This document shows positions 2,737 through 18,864 of a stretch of 18,864 nt of DNA, one piece after another. The DNA lies in IMG/VR virus record IMGVR_UViG_2693429676_000005; one strand, 5' to 3'. A program made the position numbers and the translations under genes. Under the pieces are notes generated by a model. That model saw only the letters and a list, made by a program, of their open reading frames with translations. It made no database searches and was not told the DNA's origin. Source of the stretch: a virus. Its lineage: Duplodnaviria > Heunggongvirae > Uroviricota > Caudoviricetes. Positions within the stretch are counted from its first letter, which is position 1. Each line of letters starts with the position of its first letter.

Positions 2737-5307
2737 TCTTGTTATTGACCTGAGTCTGGATGCTGTCCGTTTCGATGAGCAGATGAGCCGGGTAAGGCGT
2801 CATTTTTCAGGTCTGGATACCGACGCCAGAAAAACCGCCAGTGCTGTTGAACAGGGCCTGAGCCGCCAGGCGCTGGCTGCACAAAAAGCCGGGATTTCCG
2901 TCGGGCAGTATAAAGCGGCCATGCGAACCCTGCCCGCACAGTTTACGGATATCGCCACGCAGCTTGCCGGTGGTCAGAATCCCTGGCTGATCCTGCTGCA
3001 ACAGGGCGGTCAGGTGAAGGACTCCTTCGGCGGGATGATCCCCATGTTCAGGGGGCTTGCCGATGCGATCACCCTGCCGATGGTCGGGGTCACCTCGCTG
3101 GCGGTGGCGACAGGTGCACTGGTGTACGCCTGGTACCAGGGAGATTCCACGCTTTCAGCGTTTAATAAAACCCTGGTTCTTTCCGGTAATCAGTCCGGAC
3201 TGACTGCCGATCGTATGCTGACTCTCTCAAGAGCCGGGCAGGCAGCAGGGCTGACGTTTAACCAGGCGAGAGAGTCACTGGCAGCCCTGGTGAATGCCGG
3301 TGTGCGTGGTGGTGAACAGTTTGATGCCATCAACCAGAGTGTCGCGCGTTTTGCGTCTGCATCCGGTGTGGAGGTGGATAAAGTCGCTGAAGCCTTCGGG
3401 AAGCTGACCACTGACCCGACGTCGGGACTGATGGCGATGGCGCGCCAGTTCCGTAACGTGACGGCAGAGCAGATTGCGTATGTTGCACAGCTGCAGCGTT
3501 CCGGAGACGAGGCCGGGGCATTGCAGGCGGCGAACGATATCGCCACGAAAGGCTTTGATGAGCAGACCCGTCGCCTGAAAGAAAACATGGGAACACTGGA
3601 GACCTGGGCGGATAAAACAGGGAAGGCATTCAAATCGATGTGGGATGCCATTCTGGATATCGGTCGTCCGGAATCCTCAGCGGATATGCTCGCCAGTGCG
3701 CAGAAGGCATTTGATGAGGCGGATAAAAAATGGCAGTGGTACCAGAGTCGGAGCCAGCGCCGCGGTAAAACCTCCTCTTTCCGGGCCAACCTTCAGGGCG
3801 CATGGGATGACCGGGAAAATGCCCGTCTGGGTCTGGCAGCGGCAACGCTGCAGTCGGATATGGAAAAAGCCGGTGAACTGGCGGCAAGGGACAGGGCTGA
3901 GCGTGAGTCGTCACAGCTGAAGTATACCGGAGAGGCGCAGAAGGCGTATGAGCGCCTGCTGACGCCACTGGAGAAATATACCGCCCGGCAGGAAGAGCTG
4001 AATAAGGCCCTGAAAGACGGGAAAATCCTGCAGGCGGATTACAACACGCTGATGGCGTCGGCAAAAAAGGATTATGAGTCGACGCAGAAAAAGCCGTCCG
4101 GTGTGAAGGTGTCTGCCGGTGAGCGCCAGGAAGACCAGGCGCATGCAGCCCTGCTGGCGCTTGAAACTGAGCTCAGGACGCTGGAGAAGCACAGCGGTGC
4201 GAATGAAAAAATCAGCCAGCAGCGCCGTGATTTATGGAAAGCGGAAAATCAGTATGTGGTCCTGAAAGAGGCCGCCACGAAACGGCAGTTATCTGAGCAG
4301 GAAAAATCCCTGCTGGCCCATGAGAAAGAAACGCTGGAGTACAAACGCCAGCTGGCTGAGCTGGGCGACAAGATTGAACACCAGAAACGGCTGAATGAGC
4401 TGGCACAGCAGGCGGCGCGGTTTGAACAGCAGCAGAGCGCGAAGCAGGCGGCAATCAGCGCAAAAGCCCGCGGACTCACCGACCGTCAGGCGCAGCGGGA
4501 GTCGGAAGAGCAGCGCCTTCGTGAGGTGTACGGTGATAATCCGGCTGCGCTGGCGAAGGCCACATCTGCACTGAAGAACACCTGGTCTGCGGAGGAGCAG
4601 CTTCGTGGAAGCTGGATGGCCGGGATGAAGTCCGGCTGGGGCGAGTGGGCGGAAAGTGCGACGGACAGTTTTTCGCAGGTTAAAAACGCGGCCACGCAGA
4701 CCTTTGACGGTATTGCACAGAATATGGCAGCGATGCTGATCGGCAGCGAACAGAACTGGCGTGGTTTCACCCGTTCTGTGCTGTCCATGCTGACAGAGAT
4801 TTTTCTGAAGCAGGCGATGGTGGGGATAGTCGGGAGTATCGGCAGCGCCATTGGCGGTGCTTTCGGTGGTGGTGCGTCTGCCTCCACGGGGACGGCCATT
4901 CAGGCTGCGGCGGCGAACTTCCATTTCGCGACCGGGGGATTTACGGGGACGGGGGGTAAATATGAACCTGCGGGGATTGTTCATCGCGGGGAGTTTGTCT
5001 TCACGAAGGAGGCGACCAGCCGGATTGGTGTCGGCAATCTGTACCGCCTGATGCGGGGCTATGCGGAAGGTGGTTATGTCGGCGGTGCCGGAAGTCCGGC
5101 GCAGATGCGGCGGGNNNNNNNNNNNNNNNNNNNNNAGGCATTAATTTTAATCAGAACAATCACGTGGTGATTCAGAACGACGGCCCCAACGGGCGGGCAG
5201 GGCCGCAGCTGATGAAAGCGGTGTATGAGATGGCCCGCAAGGGGGCACAGGATGAACTCCGGCTGCAGTTGCGTGATGGCGGTATGTTATCAGGGAGCGG
5301 TGGATGA
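2717..5307 (+). CDS. H: tail tape measure protein H (interrupted by a 21-N scaffold gap at 5115-5135)
   Basis: Long ORF starting MSQPVGDLVIDLSLDAVRF; start overlaps the T stop. After the N run the protein continues in another frame (GINFNQNNHVVIQNDG...LRDGGMLSGSGG) to TGA at 5305-5307, which overlaps the M start. The frame change means the N-run length is not the true gap length. Confidence 0.88.
5115..5135. other. scaffold gap (21 N) inside H
   Basis: Run of n in the sequence; reading frame differs on the two sides. Confidence 0.95.
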
Positions 5308-8006: not shown

Positions 8007-10635
8007 ATGGGAAAAGGTGGCGGTAAGGCACACACGCCTCGTGAGGCGAAGGATAATCTCAAATCCACGCAGATGATGAGCGTGATTGATGCGATTGGTG
8101 AGGGACTGATAGAAGGTCCGGTGAAGGGACTGCAGAGTATCCTGGTGAACAAAACCCCGCTGACGGACACGGACGGTAATCCCGTGATACACGGTGTGAC
8201 GGCGGTCTGACGCGCCGGGGAGCAGGAGCAGACACCACCGGAAGGCTTTGAGTCCTCCGGTGCTGAAACCGGACTGGGCGTGGAAGTGACGAAGGCAAAA
8301 CCGGTGACGCGCACCATTACGTCCGCGAACATTGACCGCCTGCGGGTTACCTTCGGGGTGCAGTCACTGGTGCAGACCACGTCAAAGGGTGACCGAAACC
8401 CGACATCCGTCCGCCTGCTGATTCAGTTACAGCGTAACGGTAACTGGGTGACAGAAAAGGATGTCACCATTAACGGCAAGACCACCTCGCAGTTTCTGGC
8501 GTCGGTGATTCTGGATAATCTGCCTCCCCGTCCTTTTAACATCCGGATGGTCCGGGAGACAGCGGACAGCACCACGGACCAGCTGCAGAATAAGACGCTG
8601 TGGTCGTCATACACCGAAATCATCGATGTGAAACAGTGCTACCCGAACACGGCCATTGTGGGGCTGCAGGTGGATGCGGAGCAGTTCGGCGGCCAGCAGA
8701 TGACGGTGAACTACCATATCCGCGGTCGCATCATCCAGGTGCCGTCAAACTATGACCCGGAAAAACGCACGTACAGTGGTATCTGGGACGGTAGCCTGAA
8801 ACCGGCATACAGCAACAATCCGGCCTGGTGTCTGTGGGACATGCTGACTCACCCGCGCTACGGCATGGGAAAACGTCTGGGGGCGGCGGATGTGGACAAG
8901 TGGGCGCTGTATGCCATCGGGCAGTACTGCGACCAGACGGTCCCGGATAGTTTCGGGGAGACCGAGCCGCGGATGACCTTCAATGCGTACCTGGCACAAC
9001 AGCGTAAGGCATGGGACGTGCTCAGTGATTTCTGCTCGGCGATGCGCTGTATGCCGGTATGGAACGGCCAGACGCTGACGTTTGTTCAGGACCGCCCGTC
9101 GGATGTGGTGTGGCCGTACACCAACAGCGATGTGGTGGTGGATGATAACGGCGTGGGTTTCCGCTACAGCTTCAGTGCCCTGAAGGACCGGCACACGGCG
9201 GTGGAGGTGAATTATACCGACCCGCAGAACGGCTGGCAGACCTCCACGGAACTGGTGGAAGACCCGGAAGCCATACTGCGCTACGGACGCAACCTGCTGA
9301 AGATGGACGCGTTCGGCTGTACCAGCCGCGGTCAGGCCCACCGTGCCGGACTGTGGGTGATAAAGACCGAACTGCTGGAAACGCAGACGGTGGATTTCAC
9401 GCTCGGGTCTCAGGGGCTGCGGCACACACCCGGTGACATCATTGAAATCTGTGATAACGACTATGCCGGGACCCTGACCGGCGGACGTGTCCTGTCCATT
9501 GATGCTGCCACCCGCACTCTGACGCTGGACCGTGAAGTGACACTTCCGGAGACCGGTGCCGCCACGGTGAACCTGATTAACGGCAGCGGTAAGCCGGTGA
9601 GTGTGGACATCACCGAACACCCCGCGCCGGACCGGATACAGGTCAGTACCCTGCCTGATGGTGTGGAGACATACGGGGTGTGGGGACTCTCCCTGCCGTC
9701 ACTGCGCCGTCTCCTGTTCCGCTGTGTCTCCGTCCGGGAAAACACGGACGGCACCTTTGCCATCACGGCGGTGCAGCACGTACTGGAAAAAGAAGCCATC
9801 GTGGATAACGGTGCCCGCTTTGAGCCGCAGTCAGGTTCCCTGAACAGCGTCATCCCACCGGCAGTGCAGCACCTGACGGCCAGTATCTGGCGCAGGCGAA
9901 ATGGGACACGCCGCGGGTGGTGAAGGGTGTGCGCTTCAGTCTGCGCCTGACCAGTGGTAAGGGAACGGATGCCAGACTGGTGACCACCGCCATCACCGCA
10001 GACACGGAGCACCGTTTCAGCGGCCTGCCGCTCGGGGAATACACCCTGACGGTGCGGGCGATAAACAGCTATGGCCAGCAGGGTGAACCTGCCACCACCA
10101 CCTTCCGGATTGCCGCACCGGCAGCACCGTCGCGGATTGAGCTGACGCCGGGCTATTTTCAGATAACCGCCACGCCGCATCTTGCGGTTTATGATCCGAC
10201 GGTACAGTTTGAGTTCTGGTTCTCGGAAAAGCGGATTGCGGATATCAGGCAGGTTGAAACCACAGCACGCTATCTTGGCACGGCGCTGTACTGGATAGCC
10301 GCCAGTATCAATATCAAACCGGGCCATGATTATTACTTTTATATCCGCAGTGTGAACACCGTTGGCAAATCGGCATTCGTGGAGGCTGTTGGTCAGCCGA
10401 GTGATGATGCATCCGGTTATCTGGATTTTTTCAAAGGCGAGATAGGGAAAACCCATCTGGCTCAGGAGCTGTGGACGCAGATTGATAACGGTCAGCTTGC
10501 GCCTGACCTGGCTGAAATCAGGACGTCCATTACGGATGTCAGCAATGAAATCACGCAGACCGTCAATAAGAAACTGGAAGACCAGAGTGCGGCAATTCAG
10601 CAGATACAGAAGGTTCAGGTTGATACAAATAATAA
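8007..10635 (+). pseudogene. J: tail tip / host-specificity protein J, 5' and central part, disrupted by in-frame TGA (8208-8210) and a frameshift near 9875
   Basis: MGKGGGKAHTPREAKDNLKSTQ... matches recalled lambda J N-terminus. The same frame resumes after the TGA (RAGEQEQTPPEGFESSG...TRTITSANIDRL) and runs to 9923. Homology then continues in frame 2 from about 9875 ([20 protein letters not shown], cf. lambda GEYQVLARWDTPKVVKGV). Central FN3-like region present ([16 protein letters not shown]). Confidence 0.85.
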
Positions 10636-11078
10636 NCCCGACGGTACAGTTTGAGTTCTGGTTCTCGGAAAAGCGGATTGCGGATATCAGGCAGGTTGAA
10701 ACCAGCGCCCGCTATCTTGGCACGGCGCTGTACTGGATAGCCGCCAGTATCAATATCAAACCGGGCCATGATTATTATTTTTACGTTCGCAGTGTGAACA
10801 CCGTTGGCAAATCGGCATTCGTGGAGGCTGTCGGTCGGGCGAGCGATGATGCGGAAGGTTACTTGGATTTTTTCAAAGGAGAGATAGGGAAAACACATCT
10901 GGCTCAGGAGCTGTGGACGCAGATTGATAACGGTCAGCTTGCGCCTGACCTGGCTGAAATCAGGACGTCCATTACGGATGTCAGCAATGAAATCACGCAG
11001 ACTGTCAATAAGAAACTGAAAGACCAGAGTGCGGCAATCCAGCAGATACAGAAGGTTCAGGTTGATACAAATAATAAT
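10196..11078. repeat. two tandem, about 96%-identical copies (10196-10635 and 10638-11078) of a J internal segment, separated by a single N
   Basis: Both copies start CCGACGGTACAGTTTGAGTTCTGGTTCTCGGAAAAGCGGATTGCGGATATCAGGCAGGTTGAAACC and end GTTGATACAAATAATAA, with scattered substitutions. Probably an assembly join of two alleles. Confidence 0.8.
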
Positions 11079-11900
11079 CTGAACAGCATGTGGGCTGTGA
11101 AGCTGCAACAGATGAAGGACGGACGCCTTTATATTGCGGGTATCGGTGCCGGTATTGAGAATACGCCAGCAGGAATGCAGAGTCAGGTGCTGCTGGCGGC
11201 AGACAGGATTGCGATGATTAATCCTGCGAATGGCAACACAAAGCCGATGTTTGTTGGTCAGGGCGATCAGATATTCATGAACGACGTGTTCCTGAAACGC
11301 CTGACGGCTCCCACCATTACCAGCGGCGGTAATCCTCCGGCATTTTCCCTGACACCGGACGGAAAACTGACCGCTAAAAATGCAGATATCAGTGGCAGTG
11401 TGAATGCGAACGCCGGGACGCTCAACAATGTCACAATTAATGAGAACTGTCAGATTAAGGGGAAACTGTCAGCCAACCAGATTGAAGGCGATATAGTCAA
11501 AACAGTGGGTAAGGCTTTTCCGCGGGACTCCCGGGCACCGGAGCGGTGGCCATCAGGGACCATTACCGTCAGGATTTATGACGATCAGCCTTTTGACAGG
11601 CAAATTGTTATTCCGGCGGTGGCATTCAGCGGCGCTAAACATGAGCGGGAGAATAACGATATTTATTCGTCATGCCGCCTGATAGTACGGAAAAACGGTG
11701 CTGAAATTTATAACCGTACCGCGCTGGATAATACGCTGATTTACAGTGGTGTTATTGATATGCCAGCTGGTCGCGGCCACATGACGCTGGAGTTTTCGGT
11801 GTCAGCATGGCTGGTGAATAACTGGTATCCCACAGCAAGTATCAGCGATTTGCTGGTTGTGGTGATGAAGAAAGCCACCGCAGGCATCAGTATCAGCTGA
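10638..11900 (+). CDS. J: J 3' portion, allele A (receptor-binding C-terminus ending ...[10 protein letters not shown])
   Basis: Frame 0 from 10638 reads [21 protein letters not shown]...[54 protein letters not shown]..., which matches the recalled lambda J C-terminal region. Stop at 11898-11900. Confidence 0.7.
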
Positions 11901-11919
11901 ATTTTATAACCCATATACG

Positions 11920-11946
11920 GGCGCCAGAAATGGCGCCTTTTTTATT
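11920..11946 (+). terminator. intrinsic terminator after J allele A
   Basis: GGCGCC / agaaat / GGCGCC followed by TTTTTTTATT. Confidence 0.65.
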
Positions 11947-11967
11947 GCAGAAAAGCGAGAGGTAATT

Positions 11968-12014
11968 ATGCGTAAAGTTTGTGCAGCCATTTTGTCCGCA
12001 GCCATCTGTCTGTC
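11968..12014 (+). other. lom: lom 5' fragment (allele A), cut off by NNNN at 12015-12018
   Basis: ATGCGTAAAGTTTGTGCAGCCATTTTGTCCGCAGCCATCTGTCTGTC encodes MRKVCAAILSAAICL, the same signal-peptide start as the complete lom at 12995, with 3 nucleotide differences. Confidence 0.6.
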
Positions 12015-12018
12015 NNNN
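12015..12018. other. scaffold join (4 N) between lom 5' fragment and J allele B
   Basis: NNNN joins two unrelated sequence contexts (lom start, then J internal sequence). Confidence 0.9.
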
Positions 12019-12924
12019 AAACTGGAAGACCAGAGTGCGGCAATTCAGCAGATACAGAAGGTTCAGGTTGATACAAATAATAACCTGAACAGCATGTGGG
12101 CTGTGAAGCTGCAGCAGATGCAGGACGGACGCCTTTATATCGCGGGTATTGGTGCCGGTATTGAGAACACCCCTGACGGCATGCAGAGTCAGGTGCTGCT
12201 GGCGGCGGACAGGATTGCGATGGTTAATCCTGCGAATGGCAACACAAAACCGATGTTTGTTGGTCAGGGCGATCAGATATTCATGAACGACGTGTTCCTG
12301 AAACGCCTGACGGCCCCCACCATTACCAGCGGTGGAAATCCATCGGCATTTTCCCTGACTCCGGACGGAAAGCTGACCGCTAAAAATGCGGATATCAGTG
12401 GCAGTGTGAATGCGAACGCCGGGACGCTCAACAATGTCACGGTAAATGAAAACTGTACGATTAAGGGCATGCTGGAGGCGACTCAGGTCAGAGGTGACTT
12501 CGTTAAAGCTGTATCCAAATCATTTCCGAAACAGGCTGGTACGTGGGGTAACACGGAAACACCAAACGGGACGGTTACAGTCACCATAAGCGATGATCAT
12601 AACTTTGACCGCCAGATTATTATTCCGCCCATTATTTTTAACGGTATAGCGTATGACGATCCGGGGAGCGGAAATAACCCAGGAGGCACGCGATACACGG
12701 GTTATGGTTTTGAAGTTCGCAAAAACGGCGTATTAATCGCATCCAGAGAAACTAAAGGTGCCATTCCCGGTAGTTACAGTGCAGTTATTGATATGCCTAG
12801 TGGTGGTGGTAGCGTCACTCTGGAGTTTAAGATTTTCCAGAAAGGCAATCAGGGGGCAGGCAATATCACCGACTGTACGGTGATTGTGACCAAAAAAGCG
12901 GCTTCCGGCATCAGTATTCGTTGA
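12019..12924 (+). CDS. J: J 3' portion, allele B (distinct receptor-binding C-terminus ending ...KKAASGISIR); likely the true continuation of J from 10635
   Basis: 12019-12083 is identical to 10571-10635, so the two pieces overlap as unitigs. Downstream reads [24 protein letters not shown]...[53 protein letters not shown]..., then a C-terminal about 140 aa unrelated to allele A. Stop at 12922-12924. Confidence 0.75.
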   Translation, partial: KLEDQSAAIQQIQKVQVDTNNNLNSMWAVKLQQMQDGRLYIAGIGAGIENTPDGMQSQVLLAADRIAMVNPANGNTKPMFVGQGDQIFMNDVFLKRLTAPTITSGGNPSAFSLTPDGKLTAKNADISGSVNANAGTLNNVTVNENCTIKGMLEATQVRGDFVKAVSKSFPKQAGTWGNTETPNGTVTVTISDDHNFDRQIIIPPIIFNGIAYDDPGSGNNPGGTRYTGYGFEVRKNGVLIASRETKGAIPGSYSAVIDMPSGGGSVTLEFKIFQKGNQGAGNITDCTVIVTKKAASGISIR

Positions 12925-12946
12925 AATATTTATAACCCCAATAAAT

Positions 12947-12973
12947 GGCGTCAGGAATGACGCCTTTTTTATT
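12947..12973 (+). terminator. intrinsic terminator after J allele B
   Basis: GGCGTCA / ggaa / TGACGCC followed by TTTTTTATT. Confidence 0.65.
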
Positions 12974-12994
12974 GCAGAAAAGCGAGAGGTAATT

Positions 12995-13594
12995 ATGCGT
13001 AAAGTTTGTGCAGCCATTTTGTCCGCAGCCATTTGCCTGGCCGTATCCGGTGCGCCTGCATGGGCGTCTGAACATCAGTCCACACTGAGCGCGGGGTATC
13101 TTCATGCCCGTACGAACGCTCCCGGCAGCGATAATCTGAACGGGATTAACGTGAAATACCGTTATGAGTTTACGGACGCGCTGGGGCTGATTACGTCCTT
13201 CAGTTATGCCAATGCTGAGGATGAGCAAAAAACGCACTACAGCGATACCCGCTGGCATGAAGATTCCGTGCGTAACCGCTGGTTCAGCGTGATGGCGGGG
13301 CCGTCTGTACGCGTGAATGAATGGTTCAGCGCGTATGCGATGGTGGGTGTGGCTTACAGCCGTGTGTCGACTTTCTCCGGGGATTATCTCCGCGTAACTG
13401 ACAACAAGGGGAAAACGCACGATGTGCTGACCGGAAGTGATGACGGTCGCCACAGCAACACGTCTCTGGCGTGGGGGGCTGGCGTGCAGTTTAACCCGAC
13501 CGAATCCGTGACCATTGACCTTGCTTATGAAGGTTCCGGTAGTGGTGACTGGCGAACGGATGCATTTATTGTTGGTATCGGATACCGTATCTGA
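12995..13594 (+). CDS. lom: outer membrane protein Lom (Ail/Lom/PagC family beta-barrel; prophage moron)
   Basis: 199-aa ORF with signal peptide MRKVCAAILSAAICLAVSGAPAWA. Motifs GINVKYRYEFTD, SVMAGPSVRVNEWFSAYAMVGVAYSR and C-terminal AYEGSGSGDWRTDAFIVGIGYRI match recalled lambda Lom. Position after J as in lambda. Confidence 0.9.
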   Translation: MRKVCAAILSAAICLAVSGAPAWASEHQSTLSAGYLHARTNAPGSDNLNGINVKYRYEFTDALGLITSFSYANAEDEQKTHYSDTRWHEDSVRNRWFSVMAGPSVRVNEWFSAYAMVGVAYSRVSTFSGDYLRVTDNKGKTHDVLTGSDDGRHSNTSLAWGAGVQFNPTESVTIDLAYEGSGSGDWRTDAFIVGIGYRI

Positions 13595-13698
13595 CAACAG
13601 ACGCCGATTTATCTTCTGTAAATATTGTTATGATACGCAGGTTCATCCACCTTATGGGGTGAACTGCGTTTGAGGAAACGTAAAGTTACACTGTCCTG

Positions 13699-13735
13699 AA
13701 GCCCGTGGCGTCACTGCTGCGGGCTTTTTTTATTG
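13699..13735 (+). terminator. putative intrinsic terminator after lom
   Basis: AAGCCCG ... CGGGCTT stem with 14-nt loop, followed by TTTTTTTATT. Confidence 0.45.
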
Positions 13736-13745
13736 GTGGAAAAGT

Positions 13746-16502
13746 ATGACAGTAAAAATTTCTGGCGTGCTTAAAGATGGCACAGGAAAACCAGTACAGA
13801 ACTGCACCATTGTGCTGAAGGCCAGACGAACCAGCAGCACGATGGTGGTGAACACGGTGGCCTCTGAAAATCCGGATGAAGCCGGACGTTACAGCATGGA
13901 TGTTGAGCATGGTCAGTACAGCGTCACCCTGCTGGTTGAAGGTTTTCCGCCTTCACATGCCGGGACCATTACCGTCTATGAAGGTTCCAGACCAGGTACG
14001 CTGAATGATTTTCTCGGTGCCATGACGGAGGATGATGTCCGACCGGAGGCACTGCGCCGCTTTGAGCAGATGGTGGAAGAGGTGTCACGTAACGCCTCCG
14101 CGGTTGCACAGAATACGGCAGCCGCGAAAAAATCAGCCAGCGAGGCGGCAACTCATGCAACCGATGCTGCAGCCTCAGCACGTGCCGCCAGCACGTCAGC
14201 CGGACAGGCCGCGTCGTCGGCTCAGTCAGCGTCTTCCAGCGCAGGAACGGCATCGACAAAGGCCCGTGAAGCAGCAAAAAGTGCTGCTGCAGAGTCATCA
14301 AAAAGCGCGGCAGCTACCAGCGCCAGTGCCGCGAAAACGTCAGAAACGAATGCCGCAGCATCACAAAAATCGGCAGCCACTTCTGCATCCACAGCGACCA
14401 CGAAGGCGTCAGAAGCTGCCACCTCGGCACGGGGTGCGGCGGCCTCAAAAGAGGCAGCGAAATCTTCAGAAACGAATGCATCATCGAGTGCCAGTAGTGC
14501 AGCTTCCTCGGCAACGGCGGCAGGAAATTCCGCGAAGGCGGCAAAAACGTCCGAGACGAACGCTAAGTCTTCTGAAACAGCAGCGGGACAGAGCGCCTCA
14601 GCTGCGGCAGGTTCAAAAACAGCGGCTGCATTATCTGCCAGTGCCGCGTCAACAAGTGCCGGGCAGGCCTCAGCCAGTGCCACCGCCGCCGGAAAATCGG
14701 CAGAAAGCGCCGCATCATCCGCTTCAACAGCCACAACGAAGGCTGGCAAAGCCACTGAGCAAGCCACTGCAGCAGCGAGGTCTGCTTCTGCAGCAAAAAC
14801 CTCTGAAACAAATGCAAAGACTTCAGCAGACAATGCTGCTTCCTCTAAGGCAGCAGCCGCATCGTCAGCCAGTTCAGCGGCGTCATCGGCATCATCTGCG
14901 TCTGCTTCAAAAGATGAGGCGACCAGACAAGCGTCAGCAGCGAAAGGTAGTGCCACGACAGCAACAACGAAAGCATCAGAGGCGGCAGGCAGTGCGACGG
15001 CTGCATCTCAGAGCAAAGTTGCTGCTGAATCCGCGGCAACGCGCGCCGAGACAGCAGCAAAACGGGCAGAGGATATTGCATCCGCCGTGGCGCTTGAGGA
15101 TGCGAGCACGACGAAAAAGGGGATAGTACAGCTCAGCAGTGCGACCAACAGCACTTCCGAGTCACTGGCGGCAACGCCAAAAGCGGTTAAGGCGGTAATG
15201 GGTGAAACGAACAAGAAAGCGCCCTTAAATAGTCCTGCACTGACCGGAACGCCAACAACACCAACTGCGCGACAGGGAACGAATAATACCCAAATCGCAA
15301 GCACGGCTTTCGTTATGGCTGCGATTGCCGCCCTTGTAGATTCGTCACCTGATGCACTGAACACGCTGAACGAGCTGGCTGCGGCGCTGGGCAACGACCC
15401 GAATTTTGCGACCACCATGACTAACGCGCTTGCGGGTAAGCAACCGAAAGATGCCACCCTGACGGCGCTGGCCGGACTTACTACTGCGGCAGGCAAGTTT
15501 CCGTATTTTACGGGGAATGATGTCGCCAGCCTGGCAACCCTGACAAAAGTCGGGCGGGATATTCTTGCGAAATCGACCGTTGCTGCCGTTATCGAATACC
15601 TCGGTTTACAGGAAACGGTAAACAAGGCTGGTAACGCCGTTCAGCGTTCCGGCGATAAAATGACCGGAGAACTGAAAATTGGCACGGTGAATGCGCTGCG
15701 AATTTTCAATGATACCTTCGGTCTAATTTTCCGTCGTTCAGAAGATTTTCTTCATTTCATTCCGACGGCTGAAGGACAAGGCGAAAACGGTAATATCGGC
15801 CCATTAAGGCCATTCGCTATAAATCTGAGAACAGGTGCTATATCTGTCAGCCACGGGGCCAAAATTAAAGGAGGTCTAGCTATTGGAGCTACTGATAACG
15901 CACTGGGTGAAAACTCCATTGTTCTGGGAGATAACGACACCGGATTTAGGCAAGATGGAGATGGTATTATTAGCTTCTATTCAAATGGTTCGCGCATCGG
16001 ACATATTGATGAGTTAGGATTACATCTTTATAAAGATATTGAATCTAATGGCAGCAATTTTAGATTAAAAAGTAATTACCGCCACCACATTACATTCGCC
16101 AACGAAGACGGAAGAATTCGTATGTTTTTGTGGAAAGATAACGGTGGTGATGGTGTTCATATTAATAACGGTTCAGATGGTGGTGGTGATTTCATTTTTA
16201 AAACAGATGGGGGATTTGCGCTGGGAAGTGGTGCGCAAGTTGCGTCTAGTGGCGATATTTATGGTTCAGTGTGGGAAAACAACTGGTTAAGCACATGGCT
16301 GCATAATCATGTCGTTCGGGATATTCGTCTTGGCAGCATTGAATATAAAAACGTATGGCGCGACTACGGCTTTGGCGATGCGTCAGGTTATGTTTTAACA
16401 GCCGCAATTAACAGCAATGCGGATGATATTGTCGACACTGTTGCCAGAAGGCCAATTCAGAAATTGATTGGGGGAATATGGTACAACGTGGGGAGTGTTT
16501 AA
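13746..16502 (+). CDS. stf: side tail fibre protein Stf (constant N-terminal part plus invertible variable C-terminal part)
   Basis: 918-aa ORF. N-terminus [28 protein letters not shown]...[33 protein letters not shown] is near-identical to recalled lambda Stf, followed by a long Ala/Ser/Thr-rich repetitive shaft (KTSETNA repeats). The region after the crossover site at 15589-15614 is the exchangeable tip. Confidence 0.9.
15589..15614. other. left crossover site for invertase (gix/pix/hix-like, 26 bp), inside stf
   Basis: TTATCGAATACC TC GGTTTACAGGAA. The reverse complement of the right site (18505-18530) is TTATCTAAAACC TC GGTTTACGAGAA, giving 21/26 identity in inverted orientation, two 12-bp half-sites around a 2-bp core. 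Matches the recalled gix pattern. Confidence 0.7.
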
Positions 16503-16503
16503 G

Positions 16504-17031
16504 ATGATGCACCTGAAAAATATTAAGGCCGGGAATCCGAAAACACCGGAACAATACCAGCTAACTAAAAAAGCGGGCGTGGTATGGCTCTTTTGCGAAG
16601 ATGGCAAAAACTGGTATGAGGAACAAAAGAATTTTCAGCCAGACACCATAAAAATTGCTTACGATGAGAACAACATCATCGTTGCTGTCAGTAAAGACGT
16701 TTCAACTATTAATCCTGAAGGGCTAAGCATAGTTGAAGTTCCTGATATTACGGCAAATCGTCACGCAGACAATAACGGAAAATGGATGTTTCTGGATGGT
16801 AAAGTAGTAAAGAGGGAATATACAGAACAGGAACTGCAACAACAGGCCGAATCACAAAAGGCCGCATTGCTTTCCGAAGCTGAATCAGTCATCCAGCCGC
16901 TGGAACGCGCTGTCAGGCTGAATATGGCAACAGACGAGGAACGCACACGACTGGAAGCATGGGAACGCTACAGTGTTCTGGTCAGCCGTGTGGATACGGC
17001 AAATCCTGAATGGCCACAAAAGCCTGAATAA
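16504..17031 (+). CDS. tfa: tail fibre assembly chaperone Tfa (partner of + orientation fibre tip)
   Basis: Starts 1 nt after the stf stop: [41 protein letters not shown]... This is a typical Tfa N-terminus and is paralogous to the inverted copy at 17060-17593. Confidence 0.88.
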
Positions 17032-17036
17032 AAATT

Positions 17037-17056
17037 AAGGCCCGATAGCGGGCCTT
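17037..17056. terminator. hairpin between convergent tfa genes (terminator, U-tract on - strand)
   Basis: AAGGCCCG / atag / CGGGCCTT. On the - strand it is followed by AATTTTTATT. Confidence 0.6.
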
Positions 17057-17059
17057 CTC

Positions 17060-17593
17060 TCATTCTGGTTGTTCGGGAAACGTTACTGGCAGGCTGGAGG
17101 TGTCTGTGGATTCAACCTTCTGCGCATAGAGCATCCACTCGGTTAATTTTTGTTTATTCTCATCGGAAATGATGCCCAGCTGTAGCTGAGAGTCCCACAG
17201 CTGGGTTTTATCCCTGACGAGCTGCAGCAGGCTCTGCTTTTCATTTTCCGCTTGTTGCCTTTGCTCTTCCTCGGTATAAGTTCGCTTTATCACCGCACCA
17301 TCTTTGAACATCCAGTTGCCCGAAATATCAGCCCGGCGATTTGCTGTAATATCAGGCAACTCAACGACACTTAAACCTTCTGGATTAATTGCTGATACAT
17401 CCTTGTCTATAGCAATAATTATTCCCTCAACTGTGTAAGCCAGTTTTATTGTATCCTCCTGAAAGTTTTTTAATTCCTCATGCCAATTTTTTCCATCTTC
17501 GGACCATAACCAGATAACATCAAAATTCTTTGTTAGCTGGTATTGTTCAACGGTTTTTGGATTACCTGCGACAATGTTTTTTAAATGCTGCAT
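17060..17593 (-). CDS. tfa: tail fibre assembly chaperone Tfa' (alternative, inside invertible segment)
   Basis: 177-aa [43 protein letters not shown]..., with a conserved N-terminal about 95 aa shared with the + strand Tfa and a different C-terminus. Confidence 0.88.
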
Positions 17594-17595
17594 GA

Positions 17596-18522
17596 TTATA
17601 CCTGCGATACGTTATACCATGTTCCGTTAATTAACTTTTGTATTGGTCTGAATACTGCCGGATCATCACCATCGACTTCACCGATAATACCAAGCCCCGT
17701 GATTACATGGCCTGATTTTTCATACATCACGCCTTTCTTCATGGTCTAAACAACTCGTGTGCCAAGTCTGACATCTCTCACATAGCGGGAATCAAAGTTA
17801 CCGTAATCCGAGGGATTAACACGTCCCGTAATATTTATGGTTTTATTACTTTGAATGCTTCCGGAGACAAAGCGCATAACATGGACGTTATTAGCATAAA
17901 CATCCAGATTACCATCGCCTTTTTGTTTAAAGCCCGTGTCATTATCACCCAATACAATCGAATTACCGCCAAGAGCACTGGATGTTCCGATACCCAGTGC
18001 ACCATTCAGTTGACCACCAGATAACGGCAGTGCACCAACATCTCCTGCTGAAGGTTTTCTGGTGGTGTAAAATTCGGACCAGTCGGCTTCAAAACCATAA
18101 CCATCACGGGCTGAACGATAAAAAATACCGCCATTTTTATAATTAATCCGAAACTGAGCTGCAGGACAACTTCCTTCTCCCATATAAAAATGAATAATTA
18201 ACGTTGATGCACCACTAATAGTTGCGTTATAGGCTCCGCTACTCCAGTTCCATCCAACTGCTTTATCATTCGCAACGGTGCTTCCTGTTTTCCCTAAGGC
18301 AAACGCACCAACATGACTTGCTTTTAATGTGATATCGGAGGAACCATCAAAAGCCACATTGCTTATTTTCCTGGCAGTTTTTAATTTTGCAGCTGTAGAA
18401 GCATTGCCGGATAGTTCACCAGAAAGGCCACCGCTGAATGTTTGTCGATTAGTCCAGGTATTCGCTGTACTGAGTAACGGTATTTTCTCCCCGCTTGTGC
18501 CGAGTTCTCGTAAACCGAGGTT
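17596..18522 (-). pseudogene. stf: alternative tail fibre variable C-terminus (Sv'), no own start codon, interrupted by in-frame TAG at 17746-17748
   Basis: - strand frame is open from just inside the right crossover site (NLGLRELGTSGEKIPLLSTANTWTNRQTF...) with no ATG. Contains [21 protein letters not shown], paralogous to Stf [21 protein letters not shown]. After the TAG the same frame continues for 48 codons ending [18 protein letters not shown], paralogous to the Stf C-terminus [18 protein letters not shown]. Confidence 0.75.
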
Positions 18523-18530
18523 TTAGATAA
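18505..18530. other. right crossover site for invertase (gix/pix-like, 26 bp)
   Basis: TTCTCGTAAACC GA GGTTTTAGATAA, close to the recalled Mu gix sequence TTCCTGTAAACCGAGGTTTTGGATAA. Lies directly upstream of the invertase gene, as in Mu, P1 and e14. Confidence 0.75.
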
Positions 18531-18584
18531 TGGCGGTTTCTGGCCTGCATGGCATGATTTGTGCTTTTGGACGGGAGATTCAGC

Positions 18585-18864
18585 GTGCTGATTGGCTATG
18601 TAAGGGTATCAACAAATGACCAGAATACAGACCTGCAACGAAACGCTCTTGTTTGTGCAGGATATGAACAAATATTTGAAGATAAATTAAGCGGAACAAG
18701 GACAGGCCGACCTGGATTAAAACGTGCTTTAAAGCGCCTTCAAAAAGGTGACGCACTGGTTGTCTGAAAACTGGACTGACTGGGTCACTGTATGCGGCAT
18801 CTTGTCGTGCTGGTGGTGGAAGCCTAGAAAAAGTATCGGGTGTTGCTGAACCGTGTTGATACAT
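18585..18864 (+). pseudogene. pin: Pin/Gin/Hin-family serine DNA invertase, 5' part; in-frame stops after codon 60; 3' end beyond window
   Basis: From GTG 18585: (M)LIGYVRVSTNDQNTDLQRNALVCAGYEQIFEDKLSGTRTGRPGLKRALKRLQKGDALVV, near-identical to recalled Pin/Gin N-termini including the catalytic Ser in VRVSTNDQ. TGA then replaces the conserved W of VVWKLDRLGR (18765-18767), with a second TGA (18777-18779) and a TAG (18825-18827) in the same frame. Confidence 0.8.

Follow-up and report, generated by a model that had tools for sequence, protein, structure and literature searches.

The alternative tail-fibre tip Sv' of a defective Shigella sonnei prophage is split by an in-frame TAG at 17746-17748 on the - strand of the window, by which we mean the whole stretch of 18,864 nucleotides that was analysed. 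Very probably, this amber codon is a point mutation that inactivates the silent cassette of a tail-fibre switch and is selectively neutral. The neutrality of the change is suggested by the other lesions of the prophage, which are described below together with the origin of the codon, its spread and the two orientations of the segment that contains it.

Organization of the invertible segment

The tail-fibre region of the lambdoid prophage contains lom (12995-13594) and stf (13746-16502, + strand), an intact ORF for the side tail fibre of 918 aa that is expressed in the window orientation. Pfam assigned phage_tail_N (PF08400; 3.6e-69) and gp37_trimer to the Stf protein. Codons 1 to about 618 of stf, which end at about 15600, encode the constant fibre part Sc and lie outside the segment, and the remainder (about 15600-16502) encodes the variable tip Sv and lies inside it. 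The assembly chaperone gene for Sv, tfa (16504-17031, + strand, 175 aa; Pfam Caudo_TAP, 8.2e-37), follows stf. The corresponding gene for Sv', tfa' (17060-17593, - strand, 177 aa), is also intact (Pfam Caudo_TAP, PF02413; 4.8e-34). The left crossover site (15585-15614) is located in stf at the boundary of Sc and Sv, and the right one (18505-18534) between Sv' and the remnant of an invertase gene. The two sites form a 30-nt inverted repeat that is 83% complementary, with the common core CCTCGGTTTAC, and enclose Sv, tfa, tfa' and Sv'. The resulting order is Sc-Sv-tfa / tfa'-Sv', with the tips head to head. With flanking repeats, one of which is in the fibre gene, a constant N-terminus, and two tips each accompanied by a tfa gene, the region has the layout of an invertible segment of the Mu G type in a defective lambdoid prophage.

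The Ala/Ser-rich repeat region of stf also contains long ORFs in other frames (14032-15126 on the + strand and 14222-14956 on the - strand). These most likely result from the biased composition of the region rather than being genes.

The amber codon in the Sv' reading frame

The Sv' frame starts at 18522 on the - strand, directly after a TAA within the crossover site. It has neither a start codon nor a promoter of its own and is silent in the window orientation. Upstream of the stop it comprises 258 codons (17749-18522), the translation of which contains gp37_C according to Pfam. Downstream of the TAG, 49 sense codons (one Thr codon and a 48-aa ORF, MKKGV...SQV) remain open up to a TAA at 17596-17598, and this cut-off C-terminal module (17596-17745 including the TAA) carries the conserved motif described below. 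In S. sonnei annotation the 48-aa ORF is listed as a separate 'tail fiber protein'.

The single in-frame TAG of the original prediction was confirmed both from the frame and from independent assemblies. Two numbers had been given for the codons that follow it: the 49 of its title is right, and the 48 of its text is one short. The TAA had also been described as overlapping the tfa' start, which is not the case, as two bases (TC) separate it from the ATG at 17593. BLASTP of Sv' against the + strand Stf tip aligned VRDVRLG...WYNVS through the stop (E = 2e-8), and the two tips are paralogous at both conserved blocks, as had been proposed for the frame after the TAG and the Stf C-terminus. The similarity of this frame to fibre C-termini (Stf, Mu S and Mu S') was far above chance. 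Since the orthologues continue through the same position with CAG, the earlier view of Sv' as a full-length tip with one nonsense codon, rather than a short unrelated ORF, holds. With the sense codon identified and the lesion reproduced in independent sequences, Sv' is a pseudogene by nonsense mutation.

Ancestral codon

Alignment with the orthologues indicated that the amber codon goes back to CAG (Gln), of which the first base changed from C to T on the coding strand; this corresponds to G to A at base 17748 of the + strand. Of the two ancestral codons that had been suggested, it was CAG and not TAT that was found. E. coli orthologues carry CAG at this position, and in one E. coli record (L001, NZ_OZ040035) the same tip is present in the expressed orientation and yields a 934-aa Stf that reaches the natural end. 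TAG was found in none of 5426 complete E. coli genomes. The tip end was present in six of these records, of which the two inspected directly have CAG and the rest are 1-2 bases off the window in the 57-nt probe.

Over 2.0-2.3 kb of the invertible segment, the TAG base is all that separates two IMG/VR contigs with CAG (L012 and L013) from the window. The lesion thus goes back to a single, recent C-to-T transition. Sv' differs from the E. coli orthologues by an in-frame 3-nt deletion (one Thr) and Lys for Asn, among other differences, the deletion being the only other one in the cassette that affects its length. Since both changes are also present in the unbroken tips of L012 and L013, the amber codon is the only disabling lesion of the Sv' cassette.

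Spread of the TAG allele

The window differs from the chromosome of S. sonnei 53G (HE616528.1) at 2 positions over 13041-18864 (about 5.8 kb). No near-complete match to 12020-18864 was found among complete E. coli genomes in a collection without Shigella, where the best coverage was 72%; this poor coverage is explained by the Shigella source of the DNA. Among 13 IMG/VR contigs with the Sv' tip end, 6 have TAG. The 48-aa ORF after the TAG is indexed in 2201 blocks of a public assembly collection, from which ten loci in nine chromosome-sized assemblies, including HE616528.1, were examined. The silent frame is split into ORFs of 48 aa and 203 aa, for each of which at least 1000 public contigs are listed under the name S. 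sonnei, among them Ss046, with annotations such as 'putative bacteriophage tail protein [Shigella sonnei Ss046]'. On 27 S. sonnei contigs this ORF is unbroken and encodes 253 aa. The codon is thus polymorphic (CAG/TAG) within the species, with TAG commoner by a wide margin, and the TAG allele is lineage-wide in S. sonnei. An exact-pattern scan of a one-genome-per-species contig collection gave no match for either allele.

Role of the lost residues

A phmmer search against solved structures aligned Sv' residues 231-306, across the stop, with residues 424-502 of the 504 of Mu S (5yvq; E = 5e-16), and Sv' residues 243-306 with residues 422-486 of the 488 of Mu S' (8ju3). The overall match of Sv' to 8ju3 had E = 9e-55. 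The middle domain of Sv' (residues 71-165; 18028-18312, - strand) was also very similar to the corresponding domain of Mu S', the G-minus fibre (8ju3; E = 6e-48). With this domain, the lambdoid Sv' cassette holds a Mu-type module from the C-terminal, receptor-binding half of the fibre. When 25 homologues that differ widely in their upstream domains were aligned, the part after the TAG position showed an invariant Gly, Arg, Pro, Gln and Trp. The near-invariant motif RPxQKxINGxWYNV, which is the best conserved one at the C-terminus in this family, also lies there.

A Pfam scan of the read-through Sv' (E <= 0.01) detected only gp37_C, above the cut-off, and gp37_trimer, under the cut-off, and no autoproteolytic chaperone domain of the Peptidase_S74 type. 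By its homology, and with tfa' directly downstream, the Sv' fibre belongs to the class with a separate Tfa protein (Mu S/S', lambda Stf, T4 gp37). The lost stretch of about 50 aa had been described as the part of a fibre that usually carries the distal tip or an intramolecular-chaperone function. The invariant residues and the alignment with the ends of Mu S and S' indicate that the part is indeed important, whereas an intramolecular chaperone finds no support in the Pfam result or in the presence of the separate tfa'. Apart from this remark and the context that it lacked, the original prediction was largely right.

In an AlphaFold model of moderate confidence (pLDDT 70.5, pTM 0.37), which was for an intact homologue with 98% identity and as a monomer cannot show trimer contacts, four of the last five beta strands lie beyond the stop position. 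With Foldseek, the only significant PDB matches of the model were the Mu fibres 8ju3 and 5yvq, with low global TM-scores against the trimers. The model can thus be taken to confirm the family rather than the contacts that would be lost. In Mu, Tfa binds the distal part of the fibre and secures its correct assembly and trimerisation (PMC9608196). From this behaviour of Mu Tfa we infer that the 875-aa product of the fusion of Sc to the interrupted tip would most likely not be foldable by Tfa' and would be non-functional.

Both orientations of the segment occur in S. sonnei

The orientation of the window was also found at three other loci (L016, L019 and L021), and the segment (2950 bp) was inverted relative to the window at four (L015, L022, L023 in CP044151 and L026 in CP026802). 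In the inverted state Sc is joined to the TAG tip, which gives the 875-aa product. The exact sequence of this product is found on 72 contigs and that of the 918-aa product, named as an S. sonnei prophage tail fibre, on 277, so that the split is roughly 1:4 (79:21 in favour of the window orientation) by exact-sequence contig counts, which are not a designed sample. Between the two states the crossover sites have exactly swapped their half-sites within the core, so that each site is a reciprocal hybrid. Such an exchange is characteristic of conservative site-specific recombination.

In an NCTC S. sonnei contig (UGZB01000001.1, GCA_900457235.1), the ends overlap and were left untrimmed, and the segment lies in opposite ways at the two ends (L021 and L022), the flanks of which are 100% and 99.95% identical. 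The opposite orientations at overlapping ends indicate that the sequenced culture was mixed. Nothing specific to the present locus was returned when the literature was searched for invertible tail-fibre segments of S. sonnei.

Two further observations concern the assemblies of this region. One IMG/VR contig (L010; 1-190 and 3090-3838) carries the constant fibre part twice, once at each end of the segment and oppositely oriented, a pattern that an assembler would make from a culture with both orientations. In several S. sonnei chromosomes (L017, L018, L020, L024 and L025), an IS element with a 385-aa IS3-family transposase is inserted in Sv, at a position equivalent to about 16214 of the window, and the sequence upstream of the IS is lost or moved. 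The insertion would freeze the switch in the strains that carry it.

A dead adjacent invertase and an intact invertase elsewhere

The serine invertase remnant beside the segment (pin/gin type; 18579-18767, + strand; Pfam Resolvase N-terminal domain, 3.3e-15) is open for 60 codons and then has TGA at the position of Trp61, with more stops up to the end of the window (18864). In all relatives examined, including those in E. coli, the adjacent invertase has the same stops, is truncated and is fused to a tfa fragment. Thus, neither the window nor any of these relatives has a functional serine invertase beside the segment. Since the dead gene is common to S. sonnei and the E. coli relatives that cover the region (ST131 EC958 and NCTC86), the invertase must have died before these lineages split.

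An intact serine invertase of 195 aa is encoded by a P2-like prophage on the same NCTC chromosome, about 0.5 Mb away (L032, 4001-4588), and the intact 195-aa invertase locus of a P2-like prophage is also present in L015 (4539-5144). The P2-like prophage has invertible fibre cassettes of its own. A near-identical crossover site adjoins the intact invertase in two other P2-like hosts (L027 and L031) and in the L015 scaffold. The right site of the segment together with the first ~190 nt of the invertase pseudogene (266 nt in total) is 95.5% identical to the intact invertase locus. Gin, Hin and Cin are known to depend on a Fis-dependent recombinational enhancer that acts in cis from within the 5' portion of their own genes; with 95.5% identity over this stretch, the pseudogene could have retained such an enhancer. 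Gin, Pin, Cin and Hin are interchangeable in trans. In keeping with this interchangeability, flipping of the present segment is probably due to the P2-like prophage invertase acting in trans, which makes this protein the candidate enzyme and its action the simplest explanation.

Lesions in J and joins of the scaffold

Relative to the intact 1157-aa J of a related E. coli prophage (L007), J in the window (8007-10635) is a pseudogene, in which codon 68 is TGA (8208-8210) and 22 bp are deleted near 9872. The resulting pieces of 547 aa and 513 aa recur in closed S. sonnei genomes. With the J stop and the 22-bp deletion, the prophage is unable to build tails, and purifying selection on either tip is therefore not expected.

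The fragmentation of J in the window is not wholly real. The scaffold contains N runs at 5115-5135, 10636 and 12015-12018, and the piece between the latter two (10637-12014, with the J C-terminus and the start of lom) is 100% identical to S. sonnei 53G. The stretch 10571-10635 is the same as 12019-12083, so that the flanking pieces overlap and 10637-12014 is a misplaced alternative repeat contig. The joins at 10636 and 12015-12018 are artefactual, whereas the TGA and the 22-bp deletion are real. A lom-J fusion ORF (11968-12924) was likewise rejected as a scaffold artefact.

Discussion

The following course of events would account for these results. Site-specific inversion joins Sc to one of the two tips, Sv or Sv', with the Tfa gene of that tip behind it. 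The Gln codon CAG of Sv' became TAG through a single C-to-T change, which took place in an ancestor within S. sonnei. In the window orientation this change is without effect, because Sv' has no promoter and no N-terminus there. After a flip, translation of the Sc-Sv' fusion halts at the TAG, and the 875-aa fibre lacks its last 49 residues. These residues make up most of the conserved C-terminal module and, by homology to Mu S/S', would form the distal end of the fibre. As this end is where Tfa would bind and where folding of the trimer would begin, the truncated fibre would most likely be unable to assemble. No selection would act against the TAG because the prophage is tail-less as a result of the J stop and the 22-bp deletion; its own invertase is dead as well. 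Flipping nevertheless persists, probably because the intact invertase of the P2-like prophage recognises the near-identical sites.

A first rival explanation would put the TAG down to faulty sequencing or assembly of a draft genome, with CAG as the true codon. The window is a scaffold with N runs and a misplaced alternative contig, so that its assembly quality is not high. However, closed S. sonnei chromosomes and many other assemblies have the identical base, and at least 1000 contigs carry the split ORFs. Since a base-call artefact would not recur in many independent assemblies, the chance of such an error is next to nil. Bypass of the stop would be a different matter, since the tip would then work when it is switched on, either through amber suppression or through re-initiation that gives two assembling fragments. 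An in-frame ATG located 3 nt past the TAG (17742-17740) starts the 48-aa ORF, and a glutamine-inserting amber suppressor of the supE type would give back the exact ancestral residue. We know of no amber suppressor tRNA in the S. sonnei host, however, and no evident Shine-Dalgarno sequence is found at a useful distance from the ATG, where only a GAG 11 nt upstream is present. Because the unbroken orthologues have this ATG too, it did not arise to serve re-initiation. A fibre domain cut within its conserved C-terminal module would also need to fold from two chains. Moreover, the prophage is tail-less regardless. We therefore regard bypass as very unlikely.

Alternatively, inactivation of Sv' might have been selected, if a tip like that of Mu S' could target particles or recombinant phages at S. 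sonnei itself. The match of Sv' residues 71-165 to Mu S' (E = 6e-48) and the great excess of TAG over CAG among S. sonnei contigs would fit this idea, and Mu in the G-minus state is reportedly able to infect S. sonnei. On the other hand, the species S. sonnei is young and clonal, so that any early mutation would spread by descent alone. It is known for gene decay and rich in pseudogenes, among them J and the invertase of the same prophage, and a silent cassette in a tail-less prophage offers no obvious phenotype on which selection could act. Selection is thus very unlikely as the cause of the loss. Taken together as one claim, that the amber allele is not neutral, through either the selected disabling of a Mu G-minus-like tip or a working fibre split into 875 aa and 48 aa, the idea is likewise most doubtful. 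If it were true, a prophage taken to be dead would hold a cassette that serves a function and is kept flipping by a foreign invertase.

The reading that we prefer, a neutral nonsense mutation, has little significance beyond annotation. The S. sonnei 'tail protein' ORFs of 203 aa and 48 aa are the two parts of one cassette, and their annotation should be changed to a single pseudogene that contains a stop. The CAG/TAG polymorphism can serve as a simple lineage marker in S. sonnei. The locus is also a natural case of a tail-fibre switch that flips beyond the death of its own invertase, and its continued flipping can confuse assemblies and comparisons of gene content. The case is one of ordinary pseudogene formation in a decaying prophage, with no departure from known mechanisms. 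It is mildly notable that a substantial minority of genomes still have the TAG cassette in the expressed state, to which a foreign invertase has probably turned it.

Among known systems, the present segment is most readily compared with the G segment of Mu (S-U / U'-S', gin). As in Mu, the constant part lies outside, the tips with their Tfa genes are opposed, and a serine invertase gene is adjacent; in addition, Sv' is homologous in sequence to the solved Mu S' and S fibres. The Mu fibres recognise different parts of LPS, and one fibre is made at a time (PMC11821841). Unlike that of Mu, the present switch acts on a lambdoid Stf with a lambda-type N-terminus (PF08400), has an amber codon in one of its tips and adjoins an invertase pseudogene, all within a defective phage. 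Compared by description, the segment also resembles the chromosomal switches of cryptic prophages, namely the P region of e14 (stfP-tfaP / tfaE-stfE, pinE), Rac and the Shigella pinB, pinD and pinF loci. The silent stfE cassette of K-12 is annotated as a pseudogene. The present locus differs from e14 and the pin loci in that its invertase is dead and flipping is attributed to the enzyme of another prophage. A further parallel is provided by laboratory lambda (PaPa), in which stf has a frameshift, one small lesion that carried no penalty where it arose (PMC7291167). In both cases a lambdoid side tail fibre gene was lost through one small lesion; in lambda PaPa it was a frameshift in an expressed gene of a viable phage, whereas the present lesion is a nonsense codon, and the alternative cassette that it affects is silent and belongs to a dead prophage.
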